Positions 5,366 through 20,311 of a stretch of 64,000 nt of DNA are shown in pieces. The translations under genes were made by a program, and so were the position numbers. The stretch's first letter is position 1; every line of letters starts with the position of its first letter. The notes below the pieces were generated by a model, which worked only from the letters and a program-made list of their open reading frames with translations, was not told the origin of the DNA and did no database searches. Source of the DNA: Nitrosopumilaceae archaeon (GTDB lineage: Archaea; Thermoproteota; Nitrososphaeria; Nitrososphaerales; Nitrosopumilaceae); the NCBI GenBank assembly GCA_049414205.1, contig JBMSGE010000002.1, positions 7,207 to 71,206 of the forward strand, in the 5' to 3' direction.

Positions 5366-5436
5366 GTATAAGAACAGCTGCTCTACGATAAAAACATCGT
5401 TTAGAAAATTTTCAAAAAATTTTTGATTTATTCAAA

Positions 5437-6352: not shown

Positions 6353-6550
6353 CTATTCTGTTGGCTTTGCCTTTTTTCCACGAGCCTTTGTTCTTAAAAC
6401 AGCCTGACAACATACGCATCTTATTTTTTCCGTAGTTAGAAAAAGCCCACAGAACGTACATCTCTTCTGACCAAGTTTGTATCTCACTCTATTTGGAACA
6501 GGCTCTGCCCTATGCATCACACATATTCCTCTACATGTTCTCCCCATCAC
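6353..6550 (-). CDS. Cys-rich zinc-finger microprotein
   Basis: 65 aa with CRGIC...CTFC...CVCC and a basic tail. Its start overlaps the TFB stop (ATGA). Confidence 0.6.
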   Translation of the reverse strand: MMGRTCRGICVMHRAEPVPNRVRYKLGQKRCTFCGLFLTTEKIRCVCCQAVLRTKARGKKAKPTE

Positions 6551-7449
6551 ATATCACCTCCTATTTTTAGTCGGATTTCTTTTGCTCTATCTCGGATAGT
6601 TACAGGACTGATTCCCGATGCTTCAGCAATTTTAATTTGTGAAATTTTCTCTCCGTTTGAAAGTGAAGCGAGATGAACTACTGCAGCTGCCATTGCCATA
6701 GGGTTTTTGCTGACACTTATTCCATTATCTTGTACAGTTTCCATCATTTTCAGGGCAATCATGCGTGTTTTGTTCCCTGCCCCAACTGCGGTTGCAACTC
6801 GTTCAACAAAATCAATGGGGCTAAAAGTTTCAGGATTAATTTCGAGTTCTTGCATCAGGAATCGGCATGCACCCTGAAGATATTTTCTCTTGACATTTCC
6901 TGCATTGGCAATATCTTGGATAGTTCTAGGAGTGTTTGTCAACCTACATGACATGTATACTGTTGCACACAAAATTCCGATTGTTGAGCGACCACTCAGA
7001 ATTTTTTTTGCAGATGCCTTTCTGAAAAGATATGCAGATTTTTCAACTACAGATTCGGGTAAACCAAGCTTTGCCTTGATTGCATCAAGCATGGTGAATG
7101 CTTTAGTAAAGGATTTTTGCTCTTGCTTGTATCTGCTATTTCTATCCCATAACCGAAGTCTATGAAATGTTCTAGCATTTTCTGAAGAAAGACTTTTCCC
7201 AGTAGAATCTTTGTTGTTTTTCTGAATTACCGTTGATAACCCCATATCGGAAAGCTTGAGTGTTAATTTTCTTCCAACTCTTGTGTTAGACTCGTATTCT
7301 TCTTTGGAGACTCCAACTTGTTCAGGTCCAGTAACTACTGCCTTCTCCAAAATTACAGAGCCGCAACTACCACAAGCAATTTCACCTGTAGAGATATCAG
7401 TTATAGGATATAGGTTCTTGCAGTTTTTTTCATGAATAACAGACATCAA
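6547..7449 (-). CDS. tfb: transcription initiation factor B (TFB/TFIIB) paralogue 1
   Basis: 300 aa with an N-terminal ribbon (ACGSCGSV) and two cyclin-fold repeats. C-terminal HTH is 'IAEASGISPVTIRDRAKEI'. The first Zn knuckle is reduced to a single Cys (NCKN). Confidence 0.9.
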   Translation of the reverse strand: MMSVIHEKNCKNLYPITDISTGEIACGSCGSVILEKAVVTGPEQVGVSKEEYESNTRVGRKLTLKLSDMGLSTVIQKNNKDSTGKSLSSENARTFHRLRLWDRNSRYKQEQKSFTKAFTMLDAIKAKLGLPESVVEKSAYLFRKASAKKILSGRSTIGILCATVYMSCRLTNTPRTIQDIANAGNVKRKYLQGACRFLMQELEINPETFSPIDFVERVATAVGAGNKTRMIALKMMETVQDNGISVSKNPMAMAAAVVHLASLSNGEKISQIKIAEASGISPVTIRDRAKEIRLKIGGDM

Positions 7450-7649
7450 AAGTCATACCTCCTTGGAATTTTTTGGCTCTTTAAATGAGAGAAAACAAAT
7501 AGACTGCCACAATTTTCACAGGATATTCCAAATTCATAATTGTCTACATTAGAGTGTCCGCACTCAACACAGATTTTTAATTTGGAATTTATCATAAAAC
7601 ATTTCTTTGTATTTTTCAAATCAATTTGTGGGAAAGTTATTTGGCTCAT
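7446..7649 (-). CDS. zinc-ribbon microprotein
   Basis: 67 aa with CVECG...CENCG. Its stop overlaps the TFB start by 4 nt. Confidence 0.6.
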   Translation of the reverse strand: MSQITFPQIDLKNTKKCFMINSKLKICVECGHSNVDNYEFGISCENCGSLFVFSHLKSQKIPRRYDF

Positions 7650-7669
7650 GGAATAACTAGTTCGTTAAA

Positions 7670-7707
7670 TTATTTAAGATGGTGGTAAATTAGGCTACTA
7701 GTGCTAA
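7670..7707 (-). promoter_or_regulatory. promoter of the ZnR-TFB-ZnF operon
   Basis: Minus-strand read: TTAGCACTAG-TAGCCTAATTTACCACCATC-TTAAATAA, then 20 nt to the ATG at 7649. Confidence 0.6.
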
Positions 7708-7748
7708 TTTTATTATAGAAATAAAATTTGAAAAATAAAAAAGGAGGT

Positions 7749-8630
7749 TTAGCTAAGATTCAATGGAATGCTAGCACTTCCCCAAGGTTCGTTTATTCGA
7801 AATACATAATCTTTTGAAGAATCGTATTTGAATTCTGTGCCGCCATATCCGATGTTTGGACCAAAGAATATGTTGAAGGTTCTTGACTCACCTGGTTTGA
7901 TTACAAGTAAGCCACTGGTGAAGTCTGTTGATGCATACTTGAAGGATTTGCTTCCATCCCAGACATCATAATTACACACAGATGGACCTGAGCACATCAA
8001 CTGGAGGTTTTCATTACCAGTATTTTCTACTAACATGTCAATATTCAAGTGAGCATTACCAGATTGAGTAATCTCGACTTCTGCTCCAGGGTAGTAAAAT
8101 ATTGCAGATCCAACATTGTATGTTTCAGAATTGTTTTTAAATTCTAAAACCTTCATTTCATGTTTTACAGCTCTTTCACATTCTAATCGCTCATATGCTT
8201 TCTTGATGCTATTACACTCTTCAAGTTTTGCTTCAAGATTTCCTAATTCTTTACCATCAGAGGATCTAGGTTCTTCTACAGATTTGTCATTTGCACCAAT
8301 TGAAATTAATCCTGACTTTATCAGGAATTGTATTCCTTGCACAAATGATTCATCATCGATATCACCATTTGCCCACCAGGCTGCGTTGTTTTTAACCCAT
8401 TCAGGAACTCCCTGAGATTTTTGTTCAGATACCTGAGTTGGAGGAACCACGATTATTCCATCTTGAATAAGGAATTCGATTCCTTGAATAAATTCGGATT
8501 CAGAGATGGTTCCATCTGCCCACCACCCTGCATTATTTTTGACCCATGCAGGTACAGGCTCAGCGATTGCAAATTGAGCAATAGAACCTATCAATAAAAT
8601 TGCGGCAATTGAAGTAATTGTTGTTTTCAT
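7749..8630 (-). CDS. secreted protein with two tandem 'P(A/E)WVKNNAxWWAxG...F(I/V)QGI(E/Q)FLI' repeats
   Basis: Signal-peptide-like N-terminus (MKTTITSIAAILLIGSIAQFAIA). An internal repeat of about 50 aa is visible in both protein and DNA. Confidence 0.7.
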   Translation of the reverse strand: MKTTITSIAAILLIGSIAQFAIAEPVPAWVKNNAGWWADGTISESEFIQGIEFLIQDGIIVVPPTQVSEQKSQGVPEWVKNNAAWWANGDIDDESFVQGIQFLIKSGLISIGANDKSVEEPRSSDGKELGNLEAKLEECNSIKKAYERLECERAVKHEMKVLEFKNNSETYNVGSAIFYYPGAEVEITQSGNAHLNIDMLVENTGNENLQLMCSGPSVCNYDVWDGSKSFKYASTDFTSGLLVIKPGESRTFNIFFGPNIGYGGTEFKYDSSKDYVFRINEPWGSASIPLNLS

Positions 8631-8650
8631 TGAAACGAATTTGTGTTTAT

Positions 8651-8688
8651 AGTATTTAAAATAGTGCCAAAACCATACCTAGTGCTAA
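8651..8688 (-). promoter_or_regulatory. promoter of 7749..8630
   Basis: Minus-strand read: TTAGCACTAG-GTATGGTT-TTGGCACTAT-TTTAAATACT, then about 20 nt to the ATG at 8630. A third box, TTGGCACTAC, lies at 8704-8713. Confidence 0.6.
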
Positions 8689-8829
8689 AGTCTTTCGAAA
8701 TAATTGGCACTACTCATAAAATTTAGCCCTATTAATTGATCAGAGGAACTAGATGTATCTAAGACACACCTTCCTAATTTAAAAAAAATTAAAAATCAAA
8801 TAGATGTGAAGTCCCATTTTTTCAAATTC

Positions 8830-8868
8830 CTAGTGGTAACGTGGAATTTTTCACTTTGGCTTTATAAA
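8830..8868 (+). promoter_or_regulatory. promoter of the DUF1722 gene (inverted, degenerate box)
   Basis: CTAGTGGTAA (8830-8839), then 21 nt, then TTTATAAA (8861-8868), then 21 nt to the ATG at 8890. Confidence 0.4.
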
Positions 8869-8889
8869 CAAACAATCTCCGTTTAGAAC

Positions 8890-9447
8890 ATGAAAAGAAC
8901 AACGGAAGGTATGACAAAAAGTACTTTTCAGATGCCCAAATTAACTGAAAAAGACATCGCTGAATATGTGTTGGAAAGATTTTATGAACTAAAAGAAGTA
9001 CCTCGTATGCAAGATTTAGTAACTTTTCATTCCAACAATAAGTATCTCATAATGGCCCACAGCCAAGTTCATCTAAAGGAATTGGGTAATGTTGTAGCAA
9101 ATCATGAAAAGCAACCATTAAAAAAAGTCCTAAATGATTACCAAAAAATTCTCATAACAACCCTTAAAATAAAACCCACGGTAAAAACCCACATTAATGC
9201 ATTAATGCATATTTTTGGGTTTTTTGGAAAATATCTAAGTCAAAAAGAAAAATCTATTTTCATGCAATTCATTAAAGGATATAGAGAAGACAAAATAAAA
9301 TTAGGAAAAATATTGTCAGAGATTGAGCCAATTACTTACAAAATAAACAATCTATATTTGATTAGTCAAACTTACTTTCTGTTGTATTCTGATCCCAATA
9401 TGGGGAATGTGTTTAACAGAGTTAGCATAAAATCGTTTAGAGATTAG
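8890..9447 (+). CDS. DUF1722 (YbgA-like) protein
   Basis: 'LVTFHSNNKYLIMAHSQVHLKELG' and 'HINALMHIFGFF...LSQKEK' recall the YbgA/DUF1722 family. In E. coli that gene is linked to the photolyase gene. Confidence 0.65.
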   Translation: MKRTTEGMTKSTFQMPKLTEKDIAEYVLERFYELKEVPRMQDLVTFHSNNKYLIMAHSQVHLKELGNVVANHEKQPLKKVLNDYQKILITTLKIKPTVKTHINALMHIFGFFGKYLSQKEKSIFMQFIKGYREDKIKLGKILSEIEPITYKINNLYLISQTYFLLYSDPNMGNVFNRVSIKSFRD

Positions 9448-9477
9448 ATAGAAAAGAATTTTATTAAAAATTATTTT

Positions 9478-10869
9478 TTAGATAGGTTTGCCTTTGTATT
9501 GGTAATCTATTACCTTGTGGAACAAATTATGAGAGGCAATAATTGCAACCACAGTAATTGCTATCCCCACAAAGTTCCTGATAATAACGGCCTCAGAAGG
9601 CTGAGTTGCAATAAGAGACATCTGAAATACAACATGGAAGTTATCAAATAGCCAAAACGCCATAGTCACCCAGGTTAAGACCCCTGCCATCAAATATCCT
9701 AATCGGGTTTTGTTATACACAAACAATATTGAAAACCCAATTGCAACATACCAAATTCCTGATGCCAATAACCAAAGGGGCTCATATACGTCAGGCCTAT
9801 TATCAAGCCAATAGTAAGTAGAGCCACAAATAGCATATGCAAAAAGACTCACCATGAGAATTTTTTGGTTTATTTTAAATCCAGTTTTCTCTTCTTTTTT
9901 ATTATGATTAGGCGGATTTTTTTGTATTTCTTTAGTTGCAATATCAATTGCATCTCTTACGGATTTTAGATGTAATGGAATTATTTTTTGAATCTCATCG
10001 TTTTGTACTACAGTGTCATGTACTAAGCTGTCAATCAGAGGTCTTGCAAGCGAAGCTTTAACCGGAGTGATAAGATCCACCCAATAAGACGACAATCTAG
10101 TTGTTAAAAATGGGATTTGTAAAATAAACAAATTTTTGTTTAGATATGCAGAGTAAACCCGCATTAATTCCTCATAGGTCATTTTATCAGGACCGCCAAT
10201 ATCATATATTTTCCCTGATGTTTCTTCATGTTCCATGCACCCCACAAGATATTCTACCACATCATCCACTGCAATTGGTTGTGCGAGAGATTTTACCCAG
10301 GAAGGACAGACCATAAATCGTAATCGTTCTACAAGGTATCGTAACATTGCATAAGATCCACCCTCTGCACCAATTATCAATGAAGCTCTAAGTTCTGTAA
10401 CAGGAATCCTTCCAGAGGACAGAATCTCCCCTACTTCTTTTCTACTTTTCATATGTGGAGAAAGTTCATGATCAGTATTGACTAAGCCTCCAAGATAGAT
10501 TATTCGTTTAACACCTGCTTTGGTAGCTGCATTTAAGAAATTTTCTGCCTGAATTTTTTCTCTTGCGGCAAAATCTTTCCATTTTTCTTTGCTTCCTTCC
10601 ATAGAGTGTAGAAGGTAGTATGCAGTTTCTATCCCTCTTAAGGAATTTGTTAATTCTTCCAAATCAAAAACATCAGTTTTTACAAATTTAATTTGAGGTC
10701 TGTCACCTATTTCTTTTCTAGACATTCCTTTTACAGAATAGCCTCTTTTAACAAGAGAATCAAGTAAGCGAGATCCAATAAAACCGGTAGCGCCTGTGAC
10801 CATTATAGAGTAAGGGCTTTTTTGCATAGACGCTACCTTCTCAATTTCTTGTTTCAATTTAAATTGCAC
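9478..10869 (-). CDS. NAD(P)-binding NmrA/SDR-like oxidoreductase with a C-terminal multi-TM domain
   Basis: Rossmann motif VTGATGFIGSRL near the N-terminus. About 4 hydrophobic helices occupy the last 130 aa or so. Confidence 0.8.
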   Translation of the reverse strand: MQFKLKQEIEKVASMQKSPYSIMVTGATGFIGSRLLDSLVKRGYSVKGMSRKEIGDRPQIKFVKTDVFDLEELTNSLRGIETAYYLLHSMEGSKEKWKDFAAREKIQAENFLNAATKAGVKRIIYLGGLVNTDHELSPHMKSRKEVGEILSSGRIPVTELRASLIIGAEGGSYAMLRYLVERLRFMVCPSWVKSLAQPIAVDDVVEYLVGCMEHEETSGKIYDIGGPDKMTYEELMRVYSAYLNKNLFILQIPFLTTRLSSYWVDLITPVKASLARPLIDSLVHDTVVQNDEIQKIIPLHLKSVRDAIDIATKEIQKNPPNHNKKEEKTGFKINQKILMVSLFAYAICGSTYYWLDNRPDVYEPLWLLASGIWYVAIGFSILFVYNKTRLGYLMAGVLTWVTMAFWLFDNFHVVFQMSLIATQPSEAVIIRNFVGIAITVVAIIASHNLFHKVIDYQYKGKPI

Positions 10870-11092
10870 CCACTCTAGTTGGTTTTTCTCGTTTTCTCTC
10901 TCGTTTTACTTTGAGTCCAAATCCAATTGTTGCTGCGCCTATGGCCGTCCAGAATATGCCTCCCATTCCATATGCAGAATGTAAGGTATAATCCAATTCT
11001 CCAGCAATTGCAAATCCTGCGCCTAATGCGGTAATTACACCACCAGCTGTTACTATCGTTTTATCCAAAAATTTCACCTCCCACAAATTCAA
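10859..11092 (-). CDS. small membrane protein (start uncertain)
   Basis: Gly/Ala-rich TM helices. Overlaps the downstream gene by 11 nt. An alternative TTG at 11068 is preceded by GGAGGTGA. Confidence 0.5.
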   Translation of the reverse strand: MNLWEVKFLDKTIVTAGGVITALGAGFAIAGELDYTLHSAYGMGGIFWTAIGAATIGFGLKVKRERKREKPTRVGAI

Positions 11093-11183
11093 AATTTTGA
11101 GTTTTGGTCAGTGTTTGTTTGTTATCGTCTTGTTTTTCAATTATGTTATCATGTGTTTTCATGATAGTAGTGTTGTTTTTATT

Positions 11184-11221
11184 TTATTTAAACTGGTGGT
11201 AAATTTTCTCTCTAGTGCTAA
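11184..11221 (-). promoter_or_regulatory. promoter of the 11162/11092-9478 operon
   Basis: Minus-strand read: TTAGCACTAG-AGAGAAAATTTACCACCAGT-TTAAATAA, then 21 nt to the ATG at 11162. Nearly the same module as at 7670-7707. Confidence 0.6.
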
Positions 11222-11275
11222 TATGAAGATAGAGGAGTGGTTTAGATAGACGATGCTGATAAGATTGTAAACAAA

Positions 11276-11312
11276 TTAGCACTAGGTTTCTTTATTGGCA
11301 TTTATTAAATAC
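11276..11312 (+). promoter_or_regulatory. promoter of the B12-binding regulator gene
   Basis: TTAGCACTAG-GTTTCTTTA-TTGGCATTTA-TTAAATAC. This lies inside the 5' end of the ORF-track model, so the real start is probably the in-frame TTG at 11337. Confidence 0.55.
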
Positions 11313-12179
11313 AAGATACTAAAAAGGAGAAATGGCTTGGTATACATTAGAGCAAAAAAGATCAAAGGAGATCAGTACCTATACCTCGTAAAAAGTGTCT
11401 GGGATAAACAAAAAAACACATCTAGGCAGGAAATTGTAAAGTATCTAGGAAAGGCCTCTTCAGTAGTTAAAGACGACATTCCTCCTGATTATAGGAATGA
11501 TCCCAAAATCATATCATTTTTGTCAGCTTACAATCCCGAAGATATGAAAAAAAGAGAGGAGGCAAGGAAAAAAACTCAAGATATACTATATAAAAAATTC
11601 ACCCAAGGAGACATCAAAGCTTCTTTAAAAATTTTTGAAGATTACGAGAAACTATTCAGTACAGCCGACTTTTTTGACAAGATCTTAAGATCAGTGATGC
11701 ATAAAATTGGGGATGATTGGGCAAATAACAAAATCAGTATAGCAACAGAACATGTAGCATCAAACGTGGCGCAAGGATTAGTGAAAATAATAATGGACAG
11801 GAATCAAGGTGAGTCAAGTAAGAAGAAGGTTCTAATTTGCATTCCTCAAGGAGAGGAACATCGCTTAGGGTGTGATGTTTTGGAAACTTTTCTTAGTTCA
11901 AAAGGTTTCAAAGTATACAATCTTGCAAATGGAGCTCCAAATGAATCGATAGTTAGCTTTGTCGAAACAACCAAACCTGATGTTATTTTTGTATCAATCA
12001 CATTGGATGATAATATTAAACCTGGTCAGCGTCTTGTAAAGAAAATTTCTGATTCTTTTGACGTTCCAATTTTTGTTGGAGGTTTTGCTTTAGAAAATGA
12101 AAAAACACCAAAGTTCAATGCCACTGTGTTGAAGGATATTTCATTGGAGCAGATTCCGAGAATAATAAAAGCTGCTTGA
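11295..12179 (+). CDS. CarH-like cobalamin (AdoB12)-binding photoreceptor-type protein with a non-MerR N-terminal domain
   Basis: W-x9-EH (DDWANNKISIATEH), then 36 residues to E-x-H-x-x-G (GEEHRLG), then SxL (VSITL) and GG (VGGFAL). This gives B12-binding_2 plus B12-binding domains. The likely true start is TTG 11337: (M)VYIRAKKIKGDQYLYLVKS. Confidence 0.8.
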   Translation: MAFIKYKILKRRNGLVYIRAKKIKGDQYLYLVKSVWDKQKNTSRQEIVKYLGKASSVVKDDIPPDYRNDPKIISFLSAYNPEDMKKREEARKKTQDILYKKFTQGDIKASLKIFEDYEKLFSTADFFDKILRSVMHKIGDDWANNKISIATEHVASNVAQGLVKIIMDRNQGESSKKKVLICIPQGEEHRLGCDVLETFLSSKGFKVYNLANGAPNESIVSFVETTKPDVIFVSITLDDNIKPGQRLVKKISDSFDVPIFVGGFALENEKTPKFNATVLKDISLEQIPRIIKAA

Positions 12180-12180
12180 C

Positions 12181-13539
12181 CTAAACTGTAGAGATTACAA
12201 ATTTTTGTTTTTGCAAGTATTCCATAATCTTTGGATAGCATAAAAGCGAGCTGTGAGCAGCCGAATCTGTCCCTATCCCATAACTCACAGTAGAATCCCC
12301 AATAAAGAAAAGTCCATCAACACCTTTTACTTGATGAGGCATTTTGGATTTCCATACTTTGCCAGGTTTTTTTACAACAGATTCCACTAAACTCCAAGCC
12401 ATAGGTCTTTCCCATAACAGGGACTTTTCAAAATCAGGATAGATGTGATTGATTTCATTTTTCATTTTTTCTACAGTTTCCTTGATTTTTTGTACATTTT
12501 TTACATGATCTGGTGGGACAGGAGTTCCAGCAATTATGAGGTGTTCTCCTCGAGGAGAGACTTTTGGAGTCATATTAGATATAAAGAAAATTCCCTTAGC
12601 AGTGTAATGTTTTCCAACTGGAAATACAACATGTCTTTTATCCAATTTTTTAGATAGTGCAAAATGAACTTCTATTACAGCGGTAGTATCATTAAGGGTA
12701 TTGACCTTTTGAATGAATTTTTGATCAAAAACTTTCTTGTCAAACAATTGATTTATTGCATGATATGCAGGATAAGAAATAACAACACAATCATGCTTGT
12801 GGAAATTTCCATGCTGATCAATTAATCCCGTTACACGTCCATCTTGAACTATTATTCTTTTAATTGAATTTTTTAAGAATACTTTGTTTTTGTTTATTTC
12901 AATATAGTCTTTCAAAATTTTAGAAATCTTGTCATATCCACCTTCAGCAGGATATGCAAACTCACTAGTTCCCCCTTTGAATGGGTTTGCTCGAATTATT
13001 GTTCGTGTGAATTCACCTAAAGAGATATTTTTTGCCGAATCTGCAAAGGCCAGCATACATACAGCCTCGAAAAAAGCATTTGTTTTCTCATCTAGATTTT
13101 TCGTAATATCCAAAAGAGAAGTATCATCCCATGATTCTGTCTTTTCCATAGAAGAAAAGGCCAAGGGTATTAGGATTTTTAATAAAGATAGTCTACTTTT
13201 GAAAGGAACCATAGATAATTTCAATAAATCAAGAATCCCCTTTGGATAAAGATGAAATTTATCTCCTGAAAAAAAGGCTATATCGTCAACTTTTTCTAAT
13301 TTCAAGTGCGATTCAATACCAATTCTTTTCAAAATTTTGTAAATTGCAGATTGTGTGTAAAATGGCATAATATGAAATCCATTATCTAGCAGATGCCCCT
13401 TATAGTAGATGGAGGCAGTTCTACCACCCACCTTGCCATATTTTTCATATATCTCAGTCGATATTTTTTGTTTTGTTAAAAGGGCACCCAAGGTTAATCC
13501 ACCCACACCTGCACCAATTATGGCGACGTTATTTTTCAA
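12181..13539 (-). CDS. FAD-dependent oxidoreductase, phytoene-desaturase (CrtI/CrtD) family
   Basis: N-terminal dinucleotide fold VAIIGAGVGGLTLGALL...E. 452 aa with C-terminal 'FFIGDSTVSYGIG'. Confidence 0.8.
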   Translation of the reverse strand: MKNNVAIIGAGVGGLTLGALLTKQKISTEIYEKYGKVGGRTASIYYKGHLLDNGFHIMPFYTQSAIYKILKRIGIESHLKLEKVDDIAFFSGDKFHLYPKGILDLLKLSMVPFKSRLSLLKILIPLAFSSMEKTESWDDTSLLDITKNLDEKTNAFFEAVCMLAFADSAKNISLGEFTRTIIRANPFKGGTSEFAYPAEGGYDKISKILKDYIEINKNKVFLKNSIKRIIVQDGRVTGLIDQHGNFHKHDCVVISYPAYHAINQLFDKKVFDQKFIQKVNTLNDTTAVIEVHFALSKKLDKRHVVFPVGKHYTAKGIFFISNMTPKVSPRGEHLIIAGTPVPPDHVKNVQKIKETVEKMKNEINHIYPDFEKSLLWERPMAWSLVESVVKKPGKVWKSKMPHQVKGVDGLFFIGDSTVSYGIGTDSAAHSSLLCYPKIMEYLQKQKFVISTV

Positions 13540-13559
13540 TATACAGTATAGGAGGTTTT

Positions 13560-13598
13560 TGTATATATGCAGTTAGCATTATCATCTTATAGTGCCAA
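13560..13598 (-). promoter_or_regulatory. promoter of the CrtI-like gene
   Basis: Minus-strand read: TTGGCACTAT, then 21 nt, then TATATACA, then 20 nt to the TTG at 13539. Confidence 0.5.
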
Positions 13599-13605
13599 CG
13601 GCAAT

Positions 13606-14049
13606 CTAAACAACAGCATTTTGATTTACCTCACAACTATGAATAAATTCATCCATGATTTTGTTTATTTTTTTTTCAATAAAGAATTTTGCAGGATAAA
13701 GAAGTTTAAAGAATCCGTTAAACTTTAACTGTACTTTTATTTCCACTTTTGTTCCATCATCTAATTCTTCATAACATTCAAGAAAAGATGAGCCAGTAAG
13801 AGGTCCAGACAAAATATTAATTTCGTGAATATTTGGCTTTGAAATTTTATGTTTAGTTTGAACCCTTAGAGAAGTTCCCAAAAATGAAAGATCTTCATCA
13901 ACAAAAATTTCTGAATTTATAATTTTGGTTATGCGCAAAGAGCGAAAATAATTAGGCATCAAATTTGAAAAATTTTCAATATCCGTACTAATCTCAAAAA
14001 TTTTTTTTCTATCAACATGAGTGTTTCTAGATATTTTAAGAATTAGCAT
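13606..14049 (-). CDS. SRPBCC/polyketide-cyclase-like protein
   Basis: 147 aa with an SRPBCC-like pattern (IFEISTDIENFSNLMPNYF...). Overlaps the upstream ORF by 7 nt. Confidence 0.6.
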   Translation of the reverse strand: MLILKISRNTHVDRKKIFEISTDIENFSNLMPNYFRSLRITKIINSEIFVDEDLSFLGTSLRVQTKHKISKPNIHEINILSGPLTGSSFLECYEELDDGTKVEIKVQLKFNGFFKLLYPAKFFIEKKINKIMDEFIHSCEVNQNAVV

Positions 14050-14408
14050 GATATTGAGACCTTTGACAAATAATCTTGTAAATTGGTTTTCCCAATAGGT
14101 AAATCAGGATACAGTTTTTTAATGAAATCACATAAAAGTACCATGCTTATTTTCACTGAATCAGTTTTTTTCGGATCGGTTAATGGGTACAACCTTATTG
14201 TTGTTTTGCCCTTACTTGCCAATACTTCAATGAAAAACTCTTGGCTTTCTTGATCAATTACAAGAGTGTGAACTAGTGCATTTTTCTTAGACGAGCTAAC
14301 ATACATTTCTTTGAGCCGTATTATACAAGGATTTTTTTTAAGTATGACTTGAAATTGACCTTGGATTTTCTCAAGATCCACATCCCCATTTAGAACTATG
14401 TGAGGCAT
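14043..14408 (-). CDS. hypothetical protein
   Basis: 121-aa ORF lying in an operon between the Zn-ribbon ORF and the SRPBCC gene. Confidence 0.55.
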   Translation of the reverse strand: MPHIVLNGDVDLEKIQGQFQVILKKNPCIIRLKEMYVSSSKKNALVHTLVIDQESQEFFIEVLASKGKTTIRLYPLTDPKKTDSVKISMVLLCDFIKKLYPDLPIGKTNLQDYLSKVSISC

Positions 14409-14443
14409 TTTATCCTCACCATACTAGAAAACACCATTTACCA

Positions 14444-14623
14444 TCACACTGTGAACAATTTTTCCTTGAATTCATCAACAAACATGTAGACTTTGCATCT
14501 AGTACATGCCAAGAAATCTTTTGATTTTTTCCCCCCAGTGGCAGTTACTAGGACTAATGCCTTGCGTCGACATTTAGGACATTCGGCCTCAAGGTCTCTT
14601 CTGTTCGAGTATTGTAAATTCAT
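14444..14623 (-). CDS. zinc-ribbon microprotein (59 aa, below the track cutoff)
   Basis: Own translation: MNLQYSNRRDLEAECPKCRRKALVLVTATGGKKSKDFLACTRCKVYMFVDEFKEKLFTV. The ATG lies exactly 20 nt after a module-type TATA. Confidence 0.55.
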   Translation of the reverse strand: MNLQYSNRRDLEAECPKCRRKALVLVTATGGKKSKDFLACTRCKVYMFVDEFKEKLFTV

Positions 14624-14643
14624 AGACTTACTTGGCTAAAATG

Positions 14644-14680
14644 ATATTTAACTAATGCCAACTAAAATTTATAGTGCTAA
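14644..14680 (-). promoter_or_regulatory. promoter of the 14623-13606 operon
   Basis: Minus-strand read: TTAGCACTAT-AAATTTTAG-TTGGCATTAG-TTAAATAT, then 20 nt to the ATG at 14623. Confidence 0.6.
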
Positions 14681-14770
14681 TTTTTCAAAAATATGAATTG
14701 GAAATTAACTAAATGTTTTTACTTTTCTAATTAAAGAATCCTATTTAGATAATTTGTACAAATATAACTT

Positions 14771-15034
14771 ATGAAAAAAATTATTCCTTTTCTCATGGTT
14801 GGAATTCCATTATGTTTATCAGTGATATTCATTGTAAATACCATAGAGTCGCAAACATTTCCATTGTTAAGGGACGATACATTAACTGATGAGGAAAATA
14901 TTCATCAAACCTACAAATCAGGTTTGGAATATTGTAAAAAATCATACCAACCTACAATTATTTCTGAAAATAATGAATTCAAAAAATGTATAGATTCAGT
15001 TGAAAAGTGGTATTTGAAAAATAAACAAAAATAG
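14771..15034 (+). CDS. small secreted or membrane-anchored protein
   Basis: 87 aa with the hydrophobic N-terminus MKKIIPFLMVGIPLCLSVIFIV. Confidence 0.45.
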   Translation: MKKIIPFLMVGIPLCLSVIFIVNTIESQTFPLLRDDTLTDEENIHQTYKSGLEYCKKSYQPTIISENNEFKKCIDSVEKWYLKNKQK

Positions 15035-15071
15035 GATTTAACTTAGAATTGGTAATAAACTACAATTATAA

Positions 15072-15617
15072 TTATTGTATATTGAATTTTTTCTTCAAAG
15101 TTTTTCCCATTAATTGAAGAGAAAATCTGCATACAGATGGGTTAAGTGTAAAAAATCCCCTAAATTTTCCGTCCTCAAATTCTTCGGCAATTAGTCCAAA
15201 GGGACCATAAGGACCTCTTGTAATTACACTCCACACATTTACGAGATCAGTGTTTTTGCAGTTAATTATCTCAATTTTAGAAGGTGTTTCTATTGTGGTT
15301 TTACCAAAATTGGCAATAACCCAAATTTTAGGAATTTTTTCGACCATTTGTTGGTATCTTTTTTCTACAAATTTGTACCTCGCTATTTCTTCAAAAGTTG
15401 CAAGCAATGGCTCTCCATTTTCTTTGGCATATTTTTCTATTAGAGTGCTAAGATGGTACAGAGGTTTTCTATCTGCATGAAAATTATGATATCCCTTTTC
15501 AATGAAATCATCAAATTTCCAAAGAGGGAGTTTAGATTCATCTAAGTTATGCCATTCAGCGAGTTGAGGAAATTCTTCCCATACCTTTCCAACAAAACCA
15601 GAATAAGGAGAGGACAT
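15072..15617 (-). CDS. hypothetical protein
   Basis: 181-aa ORF with globular composition. I recognise no motif with confidence. Confidence 0.55.
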   Translation of the reverse strand: MSSPYSGFVGKVWEEFPQLAEWHNLDESKLPLWKFDDFIEKGYHNFHADRKPLYHLSTLIEKYAKENGEPLLATFEEIARYKFVEKRYQQMVEKIPKIWVIANFGKTTIETPSKIEIINCKNTDLVNVWSVITRGPYGPFGLIAEEFEDGKFRGFFTLNPSVCRFSLQLMGKTLKKKFNIQ

Positions 15618-15715
15618 ACTTTGTTATTTTCATGATAACATTTAAGGAAATCTTTTAAAATCTAGATCTTGCTTCGACGAAATTGTTTTTATGCAATAAT
15701 TCTATTAGATAGGTA

Positions 15716-16120
15716 ATGTCTCGATATGAAAAAATGTTAAACATGATAATGGATTTTAATAGTTCCATAAGGTTGGCAGTGATAAGCGATACTGCAGGGG
15801 ACATTCTTTGGAATTCTAAAAGAAAAGATGTTACTTTAAAAATTCCACTTTCTGAAACCAAAAAAGCTCTCAAACGAGAAGCATCCGATTGGGTAGAGAG
15901 ATGCAAACTAGAAGATAGCAGCAACATAGGAAGAGGAATGTATAACATTACATCCTTTGAAAAGATAAAGAGAATATCAATACCAATTGATGCATTTCAT
16001 CTGCTATTCATCAGTGTAGATAACGAGCCTCTAAAAAAGAGTAAAACAAAAAGCTATGGGAAATTAGTAGAAATGGGAAAAATAATGTCCATAGTAGACT
16101 TTGCAAATACTTTTGAATAA
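15716..16120 (+). CDS. paralogue family A member 1 (possibly roadblock/LC7-like fold)
   Basis: About 50% identical to 21545..21943 and more distantly related to 32365..32721. 'IRLAVISDTAGDILW' resembles a roadblock-type beta-strand. Confidence 0.65.
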   Translation: MSRYEKMLNMIMDFNSSIRLAVISDTAGDILWNSKRKDVTLKIPLSETKKALKREASDWVERCKLEDSSNIGRGMYNITSFEKIKRISIPIDAFHLLFISVDNEPLKKSKTKSYGKLVEMGKIMSIVDFANTFE

Positions 16121-16155
16121 AAACAAAAATACAAAATTTTTTAATTTTTAATAAT

Positions 16156-16524
16156 CTAAATTTGTTCACTTAGTTTTTTTAATTTTTTGACATCAGTAAT
16201 TTCAATATGGTTGCTAAGAGTTACAATTTTTGCTAATTTTGGATTAGCATCTTTTCCCAATTTTAGTACAGTGTCACCCCTGAATCTTATTTCCATAGTA
16301 ATGTTTTGTTGGCTAAGATTTTTGGCAAGATTTTTGGCTTGAGAAAGTTGCTTTATCAATCCAGGTTTTTTAGAAAGTGTGATTGGAATTTCGAGTATAT
16401 CAAGAATTCTGGAATTTCCCAGAGTTTGAAAATTAATAGACGGAGTATTATTTGTAGAAATTTGTACAGCACCTTTTTCTAAATAAGTTAAAAAATTGGC
16501 GGAGAGGTTTTTTTCCATTCTCAT
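16156..16524 (-). CDS. hypothetical protein
   Basis: 122-aa ORF lying 5 nt downstream of 16530..16715. Confidence 0.5.
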   Translation of the reverse strand: MRMEKNLSANFLTYLEKGAVQISTNNTPSINFQTLGNSRILDILEIPITLSKKPGLIKQLSQAKNLAKNLSQQNITMEIRFRGDTVLKLGKDANPKLAKIVTLSNHIEITDVKKLKKLSEQI

Positions 16525-16529
16525 CCTAC

Positions 16530-16715
16530 CTACTTTGCAGTAATTGTCAGTTTTCCATTTAAGGAAACTGTTCCTGTGGGAACTATTTTGCCACCTTTTT
16601 CAACCTTGCCTTTCATTTCCAAATCATCAAACGCATAAGTGATGGAGGCATGTTTTTGGGTCAGTTTGTCAAAAACTTCTGCTAGCAAATTAGCCCATTC
16701 TTGTTCTTCAGTCAT
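16530..16715 (-). CDS. hypothetical small protein
   Basis: 61 aa. The ATG lies 20 nt after a module-type TATA. Confidence 0.5.
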   Translation of the reverse strand: MTEEQEWANLLAEVFDKLTQKHASITYAFDDLEMKGKVEKGGKIVPTGTVSLNGKLTITAK

Positions 16716-16735
16716 AAAGTCTGTTTGTTAGCATA

Positions 16736-16772
16736 ATATTTAACCTAGTGATAAATTTTGTACTAGTGCCAA
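16736..16772 (-). promoter_or_regulatory. promoter of the 16715-16156 operon
   Basis: Minus-strand read: TTGGCACTAG-TACAAAAT-TTATCACTAGG-TTAAATAT, then 20 nt to the ATG at 16715. Confidence 0.6.
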
Positions 16773-16915
16773 TTTTTGAAAAACAACATATTAACGATTA
16801 GATTTGAATTATTTTGCAACTGCAAAATTAATGTTAGTGTGAGTTTTAATTATTAAAAAATTTTAATCTATTTTCTTACTGTTGTAAAAAATTGTTTGGA
16901 TTTTAAAAATAGAAT

Positions 16916-16951
16916 TTAACACTAGAAAAGTTATTGGTCTTTGTATAAATT
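16916..16951 (+). promoter_or_regulatory. promoter of TFB paralogue 2
   Basis: TTAACACTAG, then 18 nt including TTGGTCTTTG, then TATAAATT, then 21 nt to the ATG at 16973. Confidence 0.5.
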
Positions 16952-16972
16952 TTGTAAACACCATAATAGAGC

Positions 16973-17875
16973 ATGAGCAAAAAAAGTCAAAAAAAGATTT
17001 GCAAACATGGTTTGGTAATTACAGATTTTGTCACAGGTGAAATTTCATGTGGGCATTGTGGAGTAGTAATATCAGAGAAAAATGTTGTCATAGGTCAAGA
17101 AACTACAGGTCATGCCAATAACGAGTATCAAGGAATGGTAAGAACGGGACAACAAATTTCATTAAAAATGGCAGACATGGGATTGTCCACCATAATCGAA
17201 TCTCAAGACAAGGATTCTTCTGGAAAATCTCTTTCTGTAGACAATAAAAGATCCTTTTATCGATTAAGAATGTGGGACAGGAATAGCAGACATGCCATTA
17301 CAAATCAATCATTTGTTAGTGCATTTACACTACTAGATGGAATAAGATCTAAATTGGCTTTGCCAGATCATGTGGTAGAGAAAACGGCATATATTTTTAG
17401 AAAAGCTCATCAAAAAAAACTCTTACCGGGACGTTCAACTCAGGTTATTTTATGCGCATCCGTTTATTTGGCATGCAGGATGACAGATACGCCGCGAACG
17501 CTTACAGATATTGCTGTTGCCGCAGGAGTGAAAAAGAAGGCAGTGCAACGAGCATATCGTTTCCTTACAAGAGAATTAGGAGCATATACCAAGGCCTACA
17601 ATCCGAGCGAATTTGTCTCAAGAATTTCAAATGAAGTTAGGATTTCAGAAAAATCAAAATCATATGCCCGAGAAATTCTGAAGTTAGGTAACGAAAAGGG
17701 AATTACCGAAGGTAAAAATCCAATGTCTATGGCAGCAGCCGCTGTGTATTTGGCTGTTAAAAAAAATCATGAGAAAATTCCGCAGACACGAATTTCAATA
17801 GCAGCTGGAATTAGCGCAGTAACCATTAGAAACAGAGTAAAAGAATTACTTGTGATTGAGAGAAAGGAGCATTAG
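16973..17875 (+). CDS. tfb: transcription initiation factor B (TFB/TFIIB) paralogue 2
   Basis: 300 aa and about 50% identical to 6547..7449. Ribbon is CKH...CGHCG, followed by two cyclin folds. C-terminal 'IAAGISAVTIRNRVKEL'. Confidence 0.9.
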   Translation: MSKKSQKKICKHGLVITDFVTGEISCGHCGVVISEKNVVIGQETTGHANNEYQGMVRTGQQISLKMADMGLSTIIESQDKDSSGKSLSVDNKRSFYRLRMWDRNSRHAITNQSFVSAFTLLDGIRSKLALPDHVVEKTAYIFRKAHQKKLLPGRSTQVILCASVYLACRMTDTPRTLTDIAVAAGVKKKAVQRAYRFLTRELGAYTKAYNPSEFVSRISNEVRISEKSKSYAREILKLGNEKGITEGKNPMSMAAAAVYLAVKKNHEKIPQTRISIAAGISAVTIRNRVKELLVIERKEH

Positions 17876-17908
17876 CACTAGTTACCATTTTTATCACTAG
17901 TTAAATAT
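17872..17908 (+). promoter_or_regulatory. promoter of 17930..18313
   Basis: TTAGCACTAG-TTACCATTT-TTATCACTAG-TTAAATAT, then 21 nt to the ATG at 17930. The distal box overlaps the TFB2 stop codon. Confidence 0.6.
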
Positions 17909-17929
17909 TATTACAGCGTAAATGCAATC

Positions 17930-18313
17930 ATGACAGCACTAGTACAAAAAATAGAAACACAACCTCCAAAGTTAGAACCATATTTTTATCAATTCTTTCA
18001 GGACGTTGTAAATACAATGCCAGTAGTTGATCCTGAGCTTCTCATACGTGTGATGATGTTTCAGGTTAATCTAAAAAAATACCCTGGCCCAGATATTCCT
18101 CACGTGAATCTCTATGTCAAATACAAAGAAGGCGTCAACCTACATCAAAAACAAGAAGAAGGTAGAGACACCTATCCATTTGAAGTAACTACAAGCAGAT
18201 GGGGAGACGGAGTAATTTTCTCAGGACTGATGAATATTGGAACTGTCGAATCTGTATGTTCAGATCCTGATATTGTCGAAGTTACAGGAGAAGCAAAACC
18301 TACACATAATTAA
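17930..18313 (+). CDS. hypothetical protein
   Basis: 127-aa ORF with a module-type promoter. Confidence 0.55.
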   Translation: MTALVQKIETQPPKLEPYFYQFFQDVVNTMPVVDPELLIRVMMFQVNLKKYPGPDIPHVNLYVKYKEGVNLHQKQEEGRDTYPFEVTTSRWGDGVIFSGLMNIGTVESVCSDPDIVEVTGEAKPTHN

Positions 18314-18331
18314 AAGTAGAAGTTTTTCCAC

Positions 18332-18351
18332 TAGGGGTATTTTTACCCCTA
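18332..18351 (+). terminator. 8-bp hairpin after 17930..18313
   Basis: TAGGGGTA-TTTT-TACCCCTA. A T-rich tract follows further downstream. Confidence 0.3.
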
Positions 18352-18440
18352 TACCACATTTTCTAATTTTCACATCTTTTTCATTTTAGGTGATTTTTTT
18401 AAAAAAGTCATAAGTTTTTAATTATTAATTTTTTTAATTT

Positions 18441-19217
18441 TCAAGCCCAGGAGATAATTTTTTGGTTATGGTTTGAAAAACCCAAAAACATCCCTAATGT
18501 GATTCTGGAGGATGGCCCTTGAATTTTTGTTACTTCATGATACTTTAAAGGATTGATTAGCACCAAATCCCCCTCCTCAATATTTGTGATTTTGCAAGAT
18601 TCTTCTGAAGAAGTCAATTCTGAAGAATATCCAAAGTCTATTTTACGGAATTTTTCATCAGATCTCATCCAATTTCTTCGATAGACTATCAAATCACCAC
18701 CTGCTTCGGATTTTTGTAGGTGTAGAACGCAAGAGAGCTGGCCATCAAGGTTTGCAATAGAGTATTCTTTTCCTTCATAGTTCACATGATCTTTGTGAAG
18801 GGGAATCGATTTCCCCATTTCATGAATACGAATGATGAATGGAGAGAATTCATCACCTGATTCATGGGCTAATGTGATTTCAGATTCAGGGAAAACGACC
18901 TTGAGCATTTTAAAAATCTTATTTGTCGGAATTTGAGATGAACCAAAAATAAAATCAAACTTTGAGTTGGCAATTTTTACCTGTTCAAAATATTCTCTTT
19001 TTTTTGTTGTATACGACATTAGAAATGGGCCGATATGAGTTAACTTTTCATTTTGGAAATTATTTTCAGGCATACTAAGAATTCTATCAGAGATAAATTT
19101 ACAATACTCTTTTTCATAAAATTGCTTTAAAATTATTGCAGGCACCTTGCCGAAGATTAAAGAGTCATAATCAATCTTGTTCCAATCAGGTTTGTTTACA
19201 ATTAGAGGTTCCCACAC
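18441..19217 (-). CDS. 2OG-Fe(II) oxygenase superfamily protein
   Basis: HxD...H facial triad candidates (PLHKDH ... KYHEV) plus RITLGMF (Rx[ST]-like). GTG start overlaps the upstream stop by 1 nt. Confidence 0.65.
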   Translation of the reverse strand: MWEPLIVNKPDWNKIDYDSLIFGKVPAIILKQFYEKEYCKFISDRILSMPENNFQNEKLTHIGPFLMSYTTKKREYFEQVKIANSKFDFIFGSSQIPTNKIFKMLKVVFPESEITLAHESGDEFSPFIIRIHEMGKSIPLHKDHVNYEGKEYSIANLDGQLSCVLHLQKSEAGGDLIVYRRNWMRSDEKFRKIDFGYSSELTSSEESCKITNIEEGDLVLINPLKYHEVTKIQGPSSRITLGMFLGFSNHNQKIISWA

Positions 19218-19504
19218 TAATACCCACCAACACCAGAATGTGAAACTTTGGCCAGAAGAACTCCTCCGTCATCACGTACATCTATCTCACATTTTAGAAA
19301 GGCATCTTTTATGCAATCTGAAAGGGTTTCAGAGGTCCAATCTTTTTGTTCGTGCGGAAATCCAGGTAGGTCAGCAGACGTTATTCTAATTTTTTCAGAG
19401 TCTGAGTAAGTCATCTTGTTTCCATTTTTTCTATGGGTAACATTGAGAATAAATGAATCCTGTGAAAGAGTTTGTGAACCATGTCCCCAAATTATATCTG
19501 TCAT
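19217..19504 (-). CDS. hypothetical protein (shortened from the track model 19217..19561)
   Basis: The ATG at 19504 (MTDIIWGHG...) lies 20 nt after TTATATCT. The longer model would run through the promoter box. Confidence 0.5.
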   Translation of the reverse strand: MTDIIWGHGSQTLSQDSFILNVTHRKNGNKMTYSDSEKIRITSADLPGFPHEQKDWTSETLSDCIKDAFLKCEIDVRDDGGVLLAKVSHSGVGGY

Positions 19505-19524
19505 GAGGTACTTTTGATGTTTTA

Positions 19525-19564
19525 AGATATAACCATAATATAGAATAATTGAATTTAGCACTAG
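19525..19564 (-). promoter_or_regulatory. promoter of the 19504-18441 operon (box in inverted orientation)
   Basis: Minus-strand read: CTAGTGCTAA, then 22 nt, then TTATATCT, then 20 nt to the ATG at 19504. Confidence 0.45.
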
Positions 19565-19706
19565 AAGTATGTTTTTAGCAATTAAAAGTCTCAGTACCTA
19601 AAAATTTTACGATAGGATGATTTCTTACTGATTGCCATCTAGGTTCCTTTTTCCTTTCAACATGTTTATGATCCTATTTCTGAGAAAAGGTAGTTCATCA
19701 TTTATT

Positions 19707-20141
19707 TCAAATATCTTTCATACGGTTGGTATAGTCATAGTGGAAGATTTTTTTAGGCGTAATTTCGATTGCAACTTCTGATTTCGATTTAATTTTTAAG
19801 AATTTTGAAAGTGTGGAATCTTTTTTCCCCAAATATTTGTCAATAAGAAGTTGCAAAATTTCATTTCCTCTTTCTTCAACAATTCGTGCTTTACCCTCCC
19901 CTCGTGCTCCTTTGTAAGGGGGTTTGTCTCCTGCTATTTCAAAACCACATGAGGGGTTGTTTTGTAAATAAGATACTATTTTTGCACTTTTCTGTGTGGC
20001 ACAGAAAAGTTTACCGCCAATTTCAACATACCATAATGACAGAACAGATGGTACACCGCTAGGTTTTAGATACGCGAGTCTTATTGGAATTTTTTTATCA
20101 GAAATTAACTCATCGATTTTTGCATTTTCTAATTTTTGCAA
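19707..20141 (-). CDS. pyridoxamine 5'-phosphate oxidase-like FMN-binding split-barrel protein
   Basis: 144 aa. The pattern 'IRLAYLKPSGVPSVLSLWY...LFCATQKSAKIV' is typical of the PPOX/general-stress-26 family. Confidence 0.7.
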   Translation of the reverse strand: MQKLENAKIDELISDKKIPIRLAYLKPSGVPSVLSLWYVEIGGKLFCATQKSAKIVSYLQNNPSCGFEIAGDKPPYKGARGEGKARIVEERGNEILQLLIDKYLGKKDSTLSKFLKIKSKSEVAIEITPKKIFHYDYTNRMKDI

Positions 20142-20254
20142 ATTTCCTTACCTCCACAAACTCTGGCCACATATTTTGAGTAACAATAATCACATGACCA
20201 ATCATGAAAATGTTTACCGCAATTTTTGCATTTTTGAATAGTGATTAGACTCAT
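20129..20254 (-). CDS. zinc-finger microprotein (41 aa)
   Basis: Own translation: MSLITIQKCKNCGKHFHDWSCDYCYSKYVARVCGGKEICKN. The ATG lies 20 nt after a module-type TATA. Confidence 0.45.
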   Translation of the reverse strand: MSLITIQKCKNCGKHFHDWSCDYCYSKYVARVCGGKEICKN

Positions 20255-20274
20255 ATTGTATTTTTGTGGTTTTC

Positions 20275-20311
20275 ATATTTTAATAGTGTTGAAGTTCCCA
20301 ACTAGTGCTAA
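20275..20311 (-). promoter_or_regulatory. promoter of the 20254-19707 operon
   Basis: Minus-strand read: TTAGCACTAG-TTGGGAACT-TCAACACTAT-TAAAATAT, then 20 nt to the ATG at 20254. Confidence 0.6.

Follow-up and report, generated by a model that had tools for sequence, protein, structure and literature searches.

The question raised by a 64-kb stretch of DNA from a Nitrosopumilaceae archaeon (contig JBMSGE010000002.1, positions 7207–71206 of the forward strand; below, the window) is what reads an operator that is common to about a dozen promoters within an island of ~14 kb, and in response to which signal. The island, between 6.3 and 21.1 kb, holds ~25 short genes in ~13 transcription units on both strands (Table 1). 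The G+C content is ~33% across the window, and its nearest relatives are Nitrosopumilaceae metagenome-assembled genomes (MAGs), including Nitrosomaritimum and Nitrosopumilus sp. A preliminary description of the sequence had proposed a light or photo-oxidative-stress regulon with its own paralogues of transcription factor B (TFB), and had pointed to a B12-binding protein resembling the photoreceptor CarH. We are fairly confident that the island is a light/ultraviolet (UV)-responsive regulon in the broad sense. With less assurance, we consider it probable from comparative sequence evidence that the B12 protein is its photoreceptor repressor, working like CarH/LitR.

The motif TAGTGCYAA occurs 12 times in the 64 kb, compared with 0.82 expected and a maximum of five in 100 shuffles, and all 12 copies lie within 7699–20311. 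When up to one mismatch was allowed, CTAGTGCTAA gave 16 matches, compared with 2.9 expected. A loose regular expression for two half-sites gives about two chance matches per 64 kb and was therefore kept out of the statistics. In class I promoters, the distal half-site TTAGCACTAG begins 57–61 nt 5′ of the start codon and is followed by 8–9 nt, a proximal half-site TT(A/G/T)nCA(C/T)nA, directly the TATA box (TTAAATA), 19–23 nt and the ATG. Because the proximal element abuts the TATA box, it occupies the position of the TFB recognition element (BRE). Class I promoters precede Zn67–TFB1–65aa, the 293-aa gene, 77aa–SDR (short-chain dehydrogenase/reductase), the B12 gene, Zn59–121aa–SRPBCC, 61aa–122aa, the 127-aa gene, Zn41–PPOX and, with a variant proximal element, the flavin adenine dinucleotide (FAD) enzyme gene. 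Class II promoters have one inverted half-site, CTAGTG(C/G)YAA, at −60, followed after ~20 nt by the TATA box and then the ATG; they serve DUF1722, the 95aa–2OG (2-oxoglutarate oxygenase) operon and the 232-aa gene, and the DUF1722 half-site is invariant in six genomes. Given the usual archaeal distance from TATA box to transcription start, the mRNAs would have little or no leader. A placement of the 95aa–2OG half-site between TATA box and start codon was rejected; the 114-aa open reading frame (ORF) first listed was corrected to 95 aa with its ATG at 19504, and from this start the site lies at −60, as in class II.

A scan for the B12 protein in GTDB representative genomes yielded 19 loci, and look-ups of further homologues added four (L020, L022–L024). 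The operator is retained 5′ of orthologous units in more than 10 Nitrosopumilaceae loci, where the units are syntenic, yet shuffled as blocks. In soil Nitrososphaeraceae, at least 10 loci have two half-sites and a TATA box 5′ of a gene for a 41–48% identical B12 protein, and the operator also precedes a small-protein–SDR–membrane-protein operon; in both orders of ammonia-oxidizing archaea (AOA), no other unit is as tightly linked to the B12 gene as the 77aa–SDR operon. The shuffling of units as blocks between genomes might suggest that the repeats arose simply because promoters were recently duplicated in a genomic island, and have no shared regulatory meaning. However, half-sites and spacing are kept across the two orders while the flanks diverge, and each orthologous promoter retains the module, its spacing and its own proximal variant (L001–L005, L020, L022–L024). 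We take this cross-order sequence conservation to have effectively refuted the duplication scenario, which we consider extremely improbable. The proposal that the motif-linked units form one conserved regulon is supported, and a B12 protein of the CarH type stands at the centre of this regulon. The B12 gene was present in 20 of the 22 longer cluster loci; the SDR, 293-aa and DUF1722 genes were present in 17 each, the FAD enzyme in 14, photolyase in seven and UvdE in three.

Scanned with an exact pattern, metagenome contigs yielded 130 matches, 55 of them in loci with cluster homologues. Where a TATA box and an ATG followed at the distance seen in the module, the contigs were low-GC and mostly carried cluster homologues; the other matches were mostly coding tandem repeats. 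By far the commonest gene 3′ of the module in metagenomes was that for the 293-aa protein. In a soil Nitrososphaeraceae MAG (L012, ~4350–5568, minus strand), a class I module precedes a 406-aa gene of the NDH-2/pyridine-nucleotide-disulfide-oxidoreductase-like kind; regulon membership therefore varies among lineages.

Three further arrangements of the module were seen. An orphan class I-like module at 8704–8800 (+) points towards DUF1722 with no ORF behind it, only MYLRHTFLI and a stop; behind its counterparts (L001 7367–7500, L002 5544–5680) comes an inverted repeat that is conserved, GAGGATGC...GCATCCTC. It may specify a small RNA, or be a second upstream promoter or leader of DUF1722. Between the 77aa–SDR module and its operon (11093–11183, minus strand), an ATG at ~11163 stands at the canonical distance and opens only a short ORF (MKTHDNIIEKQDDNKQTLTKTQNF...) in a frame that differs from that of the 77-aa gene. 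In relatives, too, there is an ATG at +57–60, and a gap of 100–130 nt before the 77-aa homologue; the short ORF may be an upstream ORF or leader peptide. In a third operator geometry, two half-sites are perfectly inverted (TTAGCACTATGGAGCTAGTGCTAA) just 5′ of the promoter of an operon for a flavin mononucleotide (FMN) reductase and UvdE (L024 19399–19422, equivalent to L004 17506–17529); none occurs in the window.

The preliminary description had envisaged a B12-gated response that uses alternative TFBs. If the TFBs read the motif, the module would be a specialized BRE or promoter class recognized by the cluster TFB paralogues, with the B12 protein as cargo or co-factor. The proximal half-site is placed exactly as this would require, TFB genes occur in 13 of the 22 longer loci, the module-driven TFB1 operon would allow positive feedback, and there is a precedent in the UV-induced TFB3 of Sulfolobus, a TFB paralogue by which the DNA-damage response is activated (PMC6101591, PMC6101594). 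However, the operator is intact in Nitrosarchaeum koreense without a nearby TFB, and in soil Nitrososphaeraceae, in whose loci no TFB homologue was found; the motif therefore tracks the B12 gene and not the TFBs. Moreover, a BRE-bound TFB could reach neither the distal half-site 19 bp upstream nor the class II site at −60, the distal site of the TFB2 promoter is not conserved in relatives (L002, L004, L024), and the C-terminal recognition helices of both TFBs appear ordinary by eye. We regard reading by the TFBs as unlikely, although it is the alternative that we would take most seriously. Because the operator persists without a nearby TFB, and class II promoters have only the −60 site, the TFBs are more likely outputs of the motif than its readers.

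TFB1 and TFB2, both 300 aa, are 52% identical to each other. In both, Pfam TFIIB matches two stretches (E = 2e-26 and 7e-35) corresponding to two cyclin-fold repeats, with a weak Zn_Ribbon_TF match. The first half of the zinc ribbon is non-canonical in both (H-x3-C and C-x-H, not C-x2-C) and is followed by a normal CxxC. The TFB1 operon and its module, with TFB1 flanked by two zinc microproteins, are present in every relative in which the region is covered (L001–L004, L024, L100). By analogy with the UV-induced TFB3 of Sulfolobus, TFB1 would be a light-induced second regulatory tier. The possibility that Zn67 is itself a truncated, TFB3-like TFB was rejected, the resemblance being confined to 11 residues (E = 0.036).

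The B12 gene lies in an ORF at 11295–12179 (+), with its true start at a TTG at 11337 (MVYIR...), where relatives have ATG. Its product comprises an N-terminal β-sheet domain (residues 1–40), a helical linker, a bundle of four helices and a B12 domain of the Rossmann type, the B12-binding module spanning residues ~85–270. Two motifs together define CarH homologues: Wx9EH, which sets them apart from MetH-type domains, and the B12-binding motif ExHx2Gx41SxV/Tx22–27GG, which includes the lower axial His (Padmanabhan et al., PMC8156234). Both are present. W128-x9-E138-H139 lies in the four-helix bundle and is invariant in 19 aligned AOA homologues that span the two orders; E173-E-H175-R-L-G178 is followed by 41 residues, S220-I-T222, 25 residues and G248-G249, an ExHx2Gx41SxTx25GG arrangement in which the E-x-H, S-x-T and GG positions are likewise invariant and G178 is Ala or Val in soil homologues. 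W128, E138-H139 and H175 align to W131, E141-H142 and H177 of Thermus thermophilus CarH (TtCarH).

Similarity searches agree with these assignments. The best PDB sequence matches (phmmer) were photocobilins, TtCarH and LitR, ahead of MetH, and the best fold matches (Foldseek) of an AlphaFold2 (AF2) model were photocobilin, CarH and LitR, with ~20% identity to TtCarH. The best NCBIfam family was CarH (57.5 bits, residues 81–268 only), compared with 35 bits or less for corrinoid proteins and MetH. The predicted cofactor is adenosylcobalamin (AdoCbl). Public annotations of the protein read ‘cobalamin B12-binding domain-containing’, ‘MtbC1’, ‘response regulator’ or ‘histidine kinase’, and one Joint Genome Institute fragment had been named automatically as ‘light-induced transcriptional regulator’. 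The description of the protein as CarH-like was apt for the B12 module and not for the head, since the protein gave no MerR match (Pfam, E up to 10).

Where CarH has a MerR winged helix, this protein has a β-sheet domain of ~40 aa. When AF2 modelled the full-length regulator from a shallow alignment, the N-terminal 50 residues had a predicted confidence (pLDDT) of 28–57; the region was resolved with diverse domain homologues, as a three-stranded antiparallel sheet with a pLDDT of 93. The domain is strongly basic (net charge +7 over 40 residues), rare (154 matches among 1.84 billion representatives) and the best conserved part of the protein between the AOA orders (~68% identity, counted on the alignment, compared with 42% overall), a conservation that parallels that of the half-site. 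Because the domain is rare, basic, confidently folded and conserved in this manner, it is the most plausible operator reader. Elsewhere, it lies at the N terminus of HNH endonucleases, of an AbiEii nucleotidyltransferase toxin and of proteins of ~170 aa to which no function is assigned, and it also stands alone. As a mobile N-terminal module it was seen on P0230, P0242, P0237, P0204 and others, and P0263, from a high-GC organism, has the same combination of N-terminal domain and B12 architecture.

The light/UV theme is best supported by the relatives, because in these photolyase, UvdE and RudS are encoded in module-driven operons. A cyclobutane pyrimidine dimer (CPD) photolyase gene is directly 3′ of DUF1722 in the same operon (the ybgA–phr arrangement) in L003, L004, L005 and L024, and is the third gene of the 95aa–2OG operon in L002 and L022, photolyase being taken as a cluster gene with DNA_photolyase and FAD_binding_7 domains. 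In L004 and L024, the FMN-reductase–UvdE operon lies behind a module. RudS, in which DUF1722 is the domain that recognizes 4-thiouridine (s4U) in tRNA, removes this UV-A-sensitive nucleoside and is reported to occur with photolyase in LitR-controlled light operons (PMC11417400). A TudS+DUF1722 fusion of the RudS architecture stands behind its own module in L002 (6387–7352). When the photolyase follows the 2OG gene, it does so together with a 106-aa gene; the window equivalents of the two photolyase sites are spacers at 9448–9477 (30 nt) and 18314–18440 (127 nt). The window genome has either lost the photolyase or never gained it, and has kept the rest of the regulon. The light or photo-oxidative theme of the preliminary description is supported for the kinds of gene present and for the relatives, whereas the window itself falls short of it in having no photolyase; the signal is probably light, with UV damage and oxidants as the other candidates.

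Several observations weigh against a CarH-like light response. No photolyase was found anywhere in the 64-kb window (tblastn), N. koreense MY1 has kept the regulator with only a 46-aa photolyase remnant (L020 8222–8362), and soil AOA, to which little light is available, commonly have the system as well. The score of 57.5 bits is far below the CarH equivalog cut-off of 400 bits, and the His next to the Trp, H132 of CarH, the light-state ligand, is replaced by Ala. The half-sites are 18–19 bp apart, whereas those of CarH are contiguous 11-bp repeats. Finally, the N-terminal domain had no significant PDB match (Foldseek, best E = 0.84), and therefore we can claim no known DNA-binding fold for it.

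The missing photolyase, the decayed one of N. koreense, the lack of an H132 equivalent and the presence of the system in soil and sediment AOA would each suit a B12 protein that acts as a dark chemical sensor, of cobalamin availability or, through its cobalt, of redox state or oxidants, in a general oxidative-stress or cofactor-economy regulon. Redox enzymes also dominate the outputs in the window. This explanation has difficulty with the invariant Wx9EH cap, a hallmark of AdoCbl photoreceptors that distinguishes them from MetH-type domains (PMC8156234), with the placement of the module on no gene for B12 synthesis or transport, and with the membership of photolyase, UvdE and RudS in the regulon of relatives. 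We consider it slightly less likely than reading by the TFBs.

If the B12 protein is a light-responsive repressor, its action may be pictured as follows. In the dark, oligomers of the AdoCbl-bound regulator would occupy the operator and so bar TATA-binding protein (TBP), TFB and RNA polymerase from the BRE/TATA region of ~13 mostly leaderless units, including that of the regulator itself. Light would photolyse AdoCbl, whereupon the oligomer would fall apart and all units would be derepressed. In the window, the predicted outputs are the TFB1 operon with its zinc-ribbon microproteins, a membrane-anchored YbjT-like SDR, the FAD amine-oxidase-like enzyme, a WelO5-like oxygenase, a PPOX/F420-type flavoprotein, DUF1722 and a secreted protein; in relatives, CPD photolyase, UvdE and RudS would be added. 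The direction of control is a further point of doubt, since a site just 5′ of BRE/TATA could serve an activator equally well. The same photoreceptor and operator might recruit TBP and TFB from upstream in one light state, as archaeal activators typically bind just 5′ of the BRE and the class II site at −60 is clear of BRE/TATA. However, the class I proximal half-site overlaps the BRE position, and all characterized CarH/LitR proteins are dark-state repressors (PMC8156234). Activation is accordingly improbable in our judgement, a little more so than chemical sensing, and we continue to favour repression.

The comparison with characterized CarH/LitR systems (T. thermophilus, Myxococcus, Bacillus megaterium and the class II LitR of Pseudomonas) is instructive in both directions. 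Shared are the four-helix bundle and Rossmann B12 module, and the inclusion of the regulator's own gene in the regulon. CarH operators are direct repeats (PMC8156234); here, direct half-sites that overlap the BRE position are present and conserved, at a different spacing. The kinds of gene are shared as well, namely photolyase, UvdE/UvsE, a long YbjT-like SDR, an FAD oxidoreductase, a flavin reductase and DUF1722/RudS. On plasmid pTT27 of Thermus HB27, the neighbours of carH–ldrP are phr, crtB, uvsE, a flavin reductase, a 481-aa SDR and an FAD oxidoreductase, and identities to the archaeal proteins are 37% for the SDR, 36% for UvdE and 29% for photolyase. The Thermus FAD oxidoreductase had no match to the amine-oxidase-like gene of the window at 1e-3 (tblastn), the two being of the same kind only, and the archaeal FMN reductase likewise did not match the Thermus flavin reductase (tblastn). 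A Pseudomonas LitR cluster comprises phrB, an SDR, an FAD oxidoreductase and hypothetical proteins (PMC9758184). In contrast to CarH, the promoter here is of the archaeal BRE/TATA type and not a sigma-70 promoter, a second promoter class has one inverted half-site, and carotenoid genes are absent.

Other stress regulons resemble parts of the island. As with Sulfolobus TFB3, we propose a UV stress response in an archaeon of the TACK group with a TFB paralogue gene as an output and likely second-tier regulator. However, TFB1 and TFB2 are full-length, with zinc ribbon and two cyclin repeats, whereas TFB3 is truncated and has no cyclin core, and the proposed inducer here is a photoreceptor and not DNA damage. 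The blue-light and singlet-oxygen regulons of Rhodobacter and Vibrio (sigmaE–ChrR and MerR), whose members are co-induced by light-derived stress, also combine a dedicated initiation factor, photolyase and redox or lipid-modifying enzymes. They belong to a different domain of life, sense through the anti-sigma factor ChrR where we propose a B12 protein, and include a cyclopropane/furan fatty-acid synthase that is absent here. Finally, the island shares with RudS operons a DUF1722 gene in a photolyase-type operon, but the DUF1722 protein of the window lacks the catalytic TudS domain (PF04463) that RudS has fused N-terminally.

Table 1. Features of the island, in window coordinates (op., operator)
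Feature	Position	Strand	Remarks
Operon Zn67–TFB1–65aa	6353–7649	−	Class I op.
65-aa Cys-rich protein	6353–6550	−	Last gene of TFB1 operon
TFB1	6547–7449	−	Pfam TFIIB; full-length
Zn67, Cys-rich microprotein	7446–7649	−	First gene of TFB1 operon
Class I op./promoter, Zn67–TFB1 operon	7670–7707	−	TTAGCACTAG-N8-TTTACCACCA-TCTTAAATA
293-aa secreted protein	7749–8630	−	Internal repeat
Class I op./promoter, 293-aa gene	8653–8688	−	
Class II promoter, DUF1722	8830–8869	+	Inverted half-site CTAGTGGTAA 8830–8839, ~20 nt, TATA box
DUF1722 (YbgA-like), stand-alone, 185 aa	8890–9447	+	Pfam
Operon 77aa–SDR	9478–11092	−	Class I op. 11184–11221
463-aa YbjT/NmrA-like SDR (NmrA/epimerase)	9478–10869	−	Pfam; C-terminal membrane domain
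77-aa membrane protein	10859–11092	−	
Class I op./promoter, 77aa–SDR operon	11184–11221	−	
Class I op./promoter, B12 gene	11276–11311	+	TTAGCACTAG-N8-ATTGGCATTT-ATTAAATA; predicted autoregulation
B12 protein, candidate regulator, 280 aa	11337–12179	+	Pfam B12-binding_2 + B12-binding
FAD amine-oxidase/CrtI-superfamily oxidoreductase	12181–13539	−	Pfam Amino_oxidase
Variant class I op., FAD gene	13560–13598	−	Proximal element ATGCTAACTGC, kept in 4 genomes
Operon Zn59–121aa–SRPBCC-like	13606–14680 incl. op.	−	Class I op. 14643–14680
SRPBCC-like protein	13606–14049	−	Polyketide_cyc, weak, E = 0.005
121-aa protein	14043–14408	−	
Zn59, Cys-rich microprotein	14444–14623	−	
181-aa protein	15072–15617	−	Conserved cluster member; no module in window
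134-aa protein	15716–16120	+	Conserved cluster member; no module in window
Operon 61aa–122aa	16156–16772 incl. op.	−	61aa 16530–16715; 122aa 16156–16524; class I op. 16735–16772
TFB2	16973–17875	+	Weak module-like promoter 16916–16952; Pfam TFIIB; full-length
127-aa protein	17930–18313	+	Class I op. 17872–17908
WelO5-like 2OG-Fe(II) oxygenase	18441–19217	−	Pfam
95-aa protein	19217–19504	−	Operon with 2OG oxygenase; class II inverted half-site 19555–19564
PPOX/F420-type flavoprotein	19707–20141	−	Operon with Zn41
Zn41, Cys-rich microprotein	20129–20254	−	Class I op. 20275–20311
232-aa membrane-anchored protein	20364–21062	+	Half-site 20302–20311 in class II geometry, 21 nt, TATA 20333

The gene classes named in the preliminary description were all recovered in place by Pfam; the PPOX-like call (Pyridox_ox_2 E = 1e-4; F420-PPOX in NCBIfam 4e-8) and the SRPBCC call are weak. 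The 293, 232, 181, 134, 127, 121, 122, 95 and 77 aa proteins gave no family assignment (Pfam, E up to 10), and Rfam gave no match between 6 and 22 kb. The 181-aa protein has a weak match (E = 0.023) to DICT, which serves diguanylate cyclases and two-component systems as a sensory domain. As its homologues are module-driven in other AOA (L054, L101), it could, on sequence resemblance, be a second sensor of the island. A family of ~133-aa proteins with no Pfam match has members at 15716–16120, 21545–21943 and 32371–32619, two of which are 55% identical and the third distant (24%); one paralogue is module-driven in L004/L024 and neither is in the window. The 293-aa protein has a tandem repeat, ..P(A/E)WVKNNA(G/A)WWA.G.I.(E/D)..F(I/V)QGI(E/Q)FLI..G(I/L)I..

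A full-text literature search, with subscription journals mostly outside its reach, found no B12 photoreceptor regulator in Archaea, no description of this operator and no AOA light/dark transcriptome. What would be new is CarH/LitR logic that combines a new putative DNA-binding domain with promoters of the archaeal type and with a TFB output. The complete proposal, that AOA sense light with a B12 photoreceptor transcription factor whose β-sheet domain binds DNA, occludes BRE/TATA and, through a TFB output, sets off a two-tier cascade, is one that we advance tentatively, as slightly less likely than not. If true, Thaumarchaeota would have their first photoreceptor-controlled regulon and Archaea their first B12 photoreceptor regulator, and B12-based photoreception would extend to the latter domain. 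The small N-terminal domain, found also on HNH nucleases and AbiEii toxins, would be a new DNA-binding module, and the compact domain and its operator may offer an orthogonal optogenetic component. The system would also be a test case for a bacterial-type one-component photoswitch wired to a eukaryote-like BRE/TATA promoter, possibly with TFB switching.

Photoinhibition of marine and freshwater ammonia oxidizers shapes the location of nitrification in the sunlit ocean, and AOA are generally regarded as cobalamin producers. To our knowledge, neither a light sensor nor a set of light-regulated genes has been described for ammonia oxidizers. The B12 protein is a concrete candidate sensor for AOA, and with it come a 40-bp operator that can be searched for in any AOA genome and a defined list of targets, including many proteins to which no function is assigned. 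As the cultured N. koreense MY1 carries the system, the proposal is directly testable. Should it hold, light would switch part of the basal transcription machinery of these archaea.

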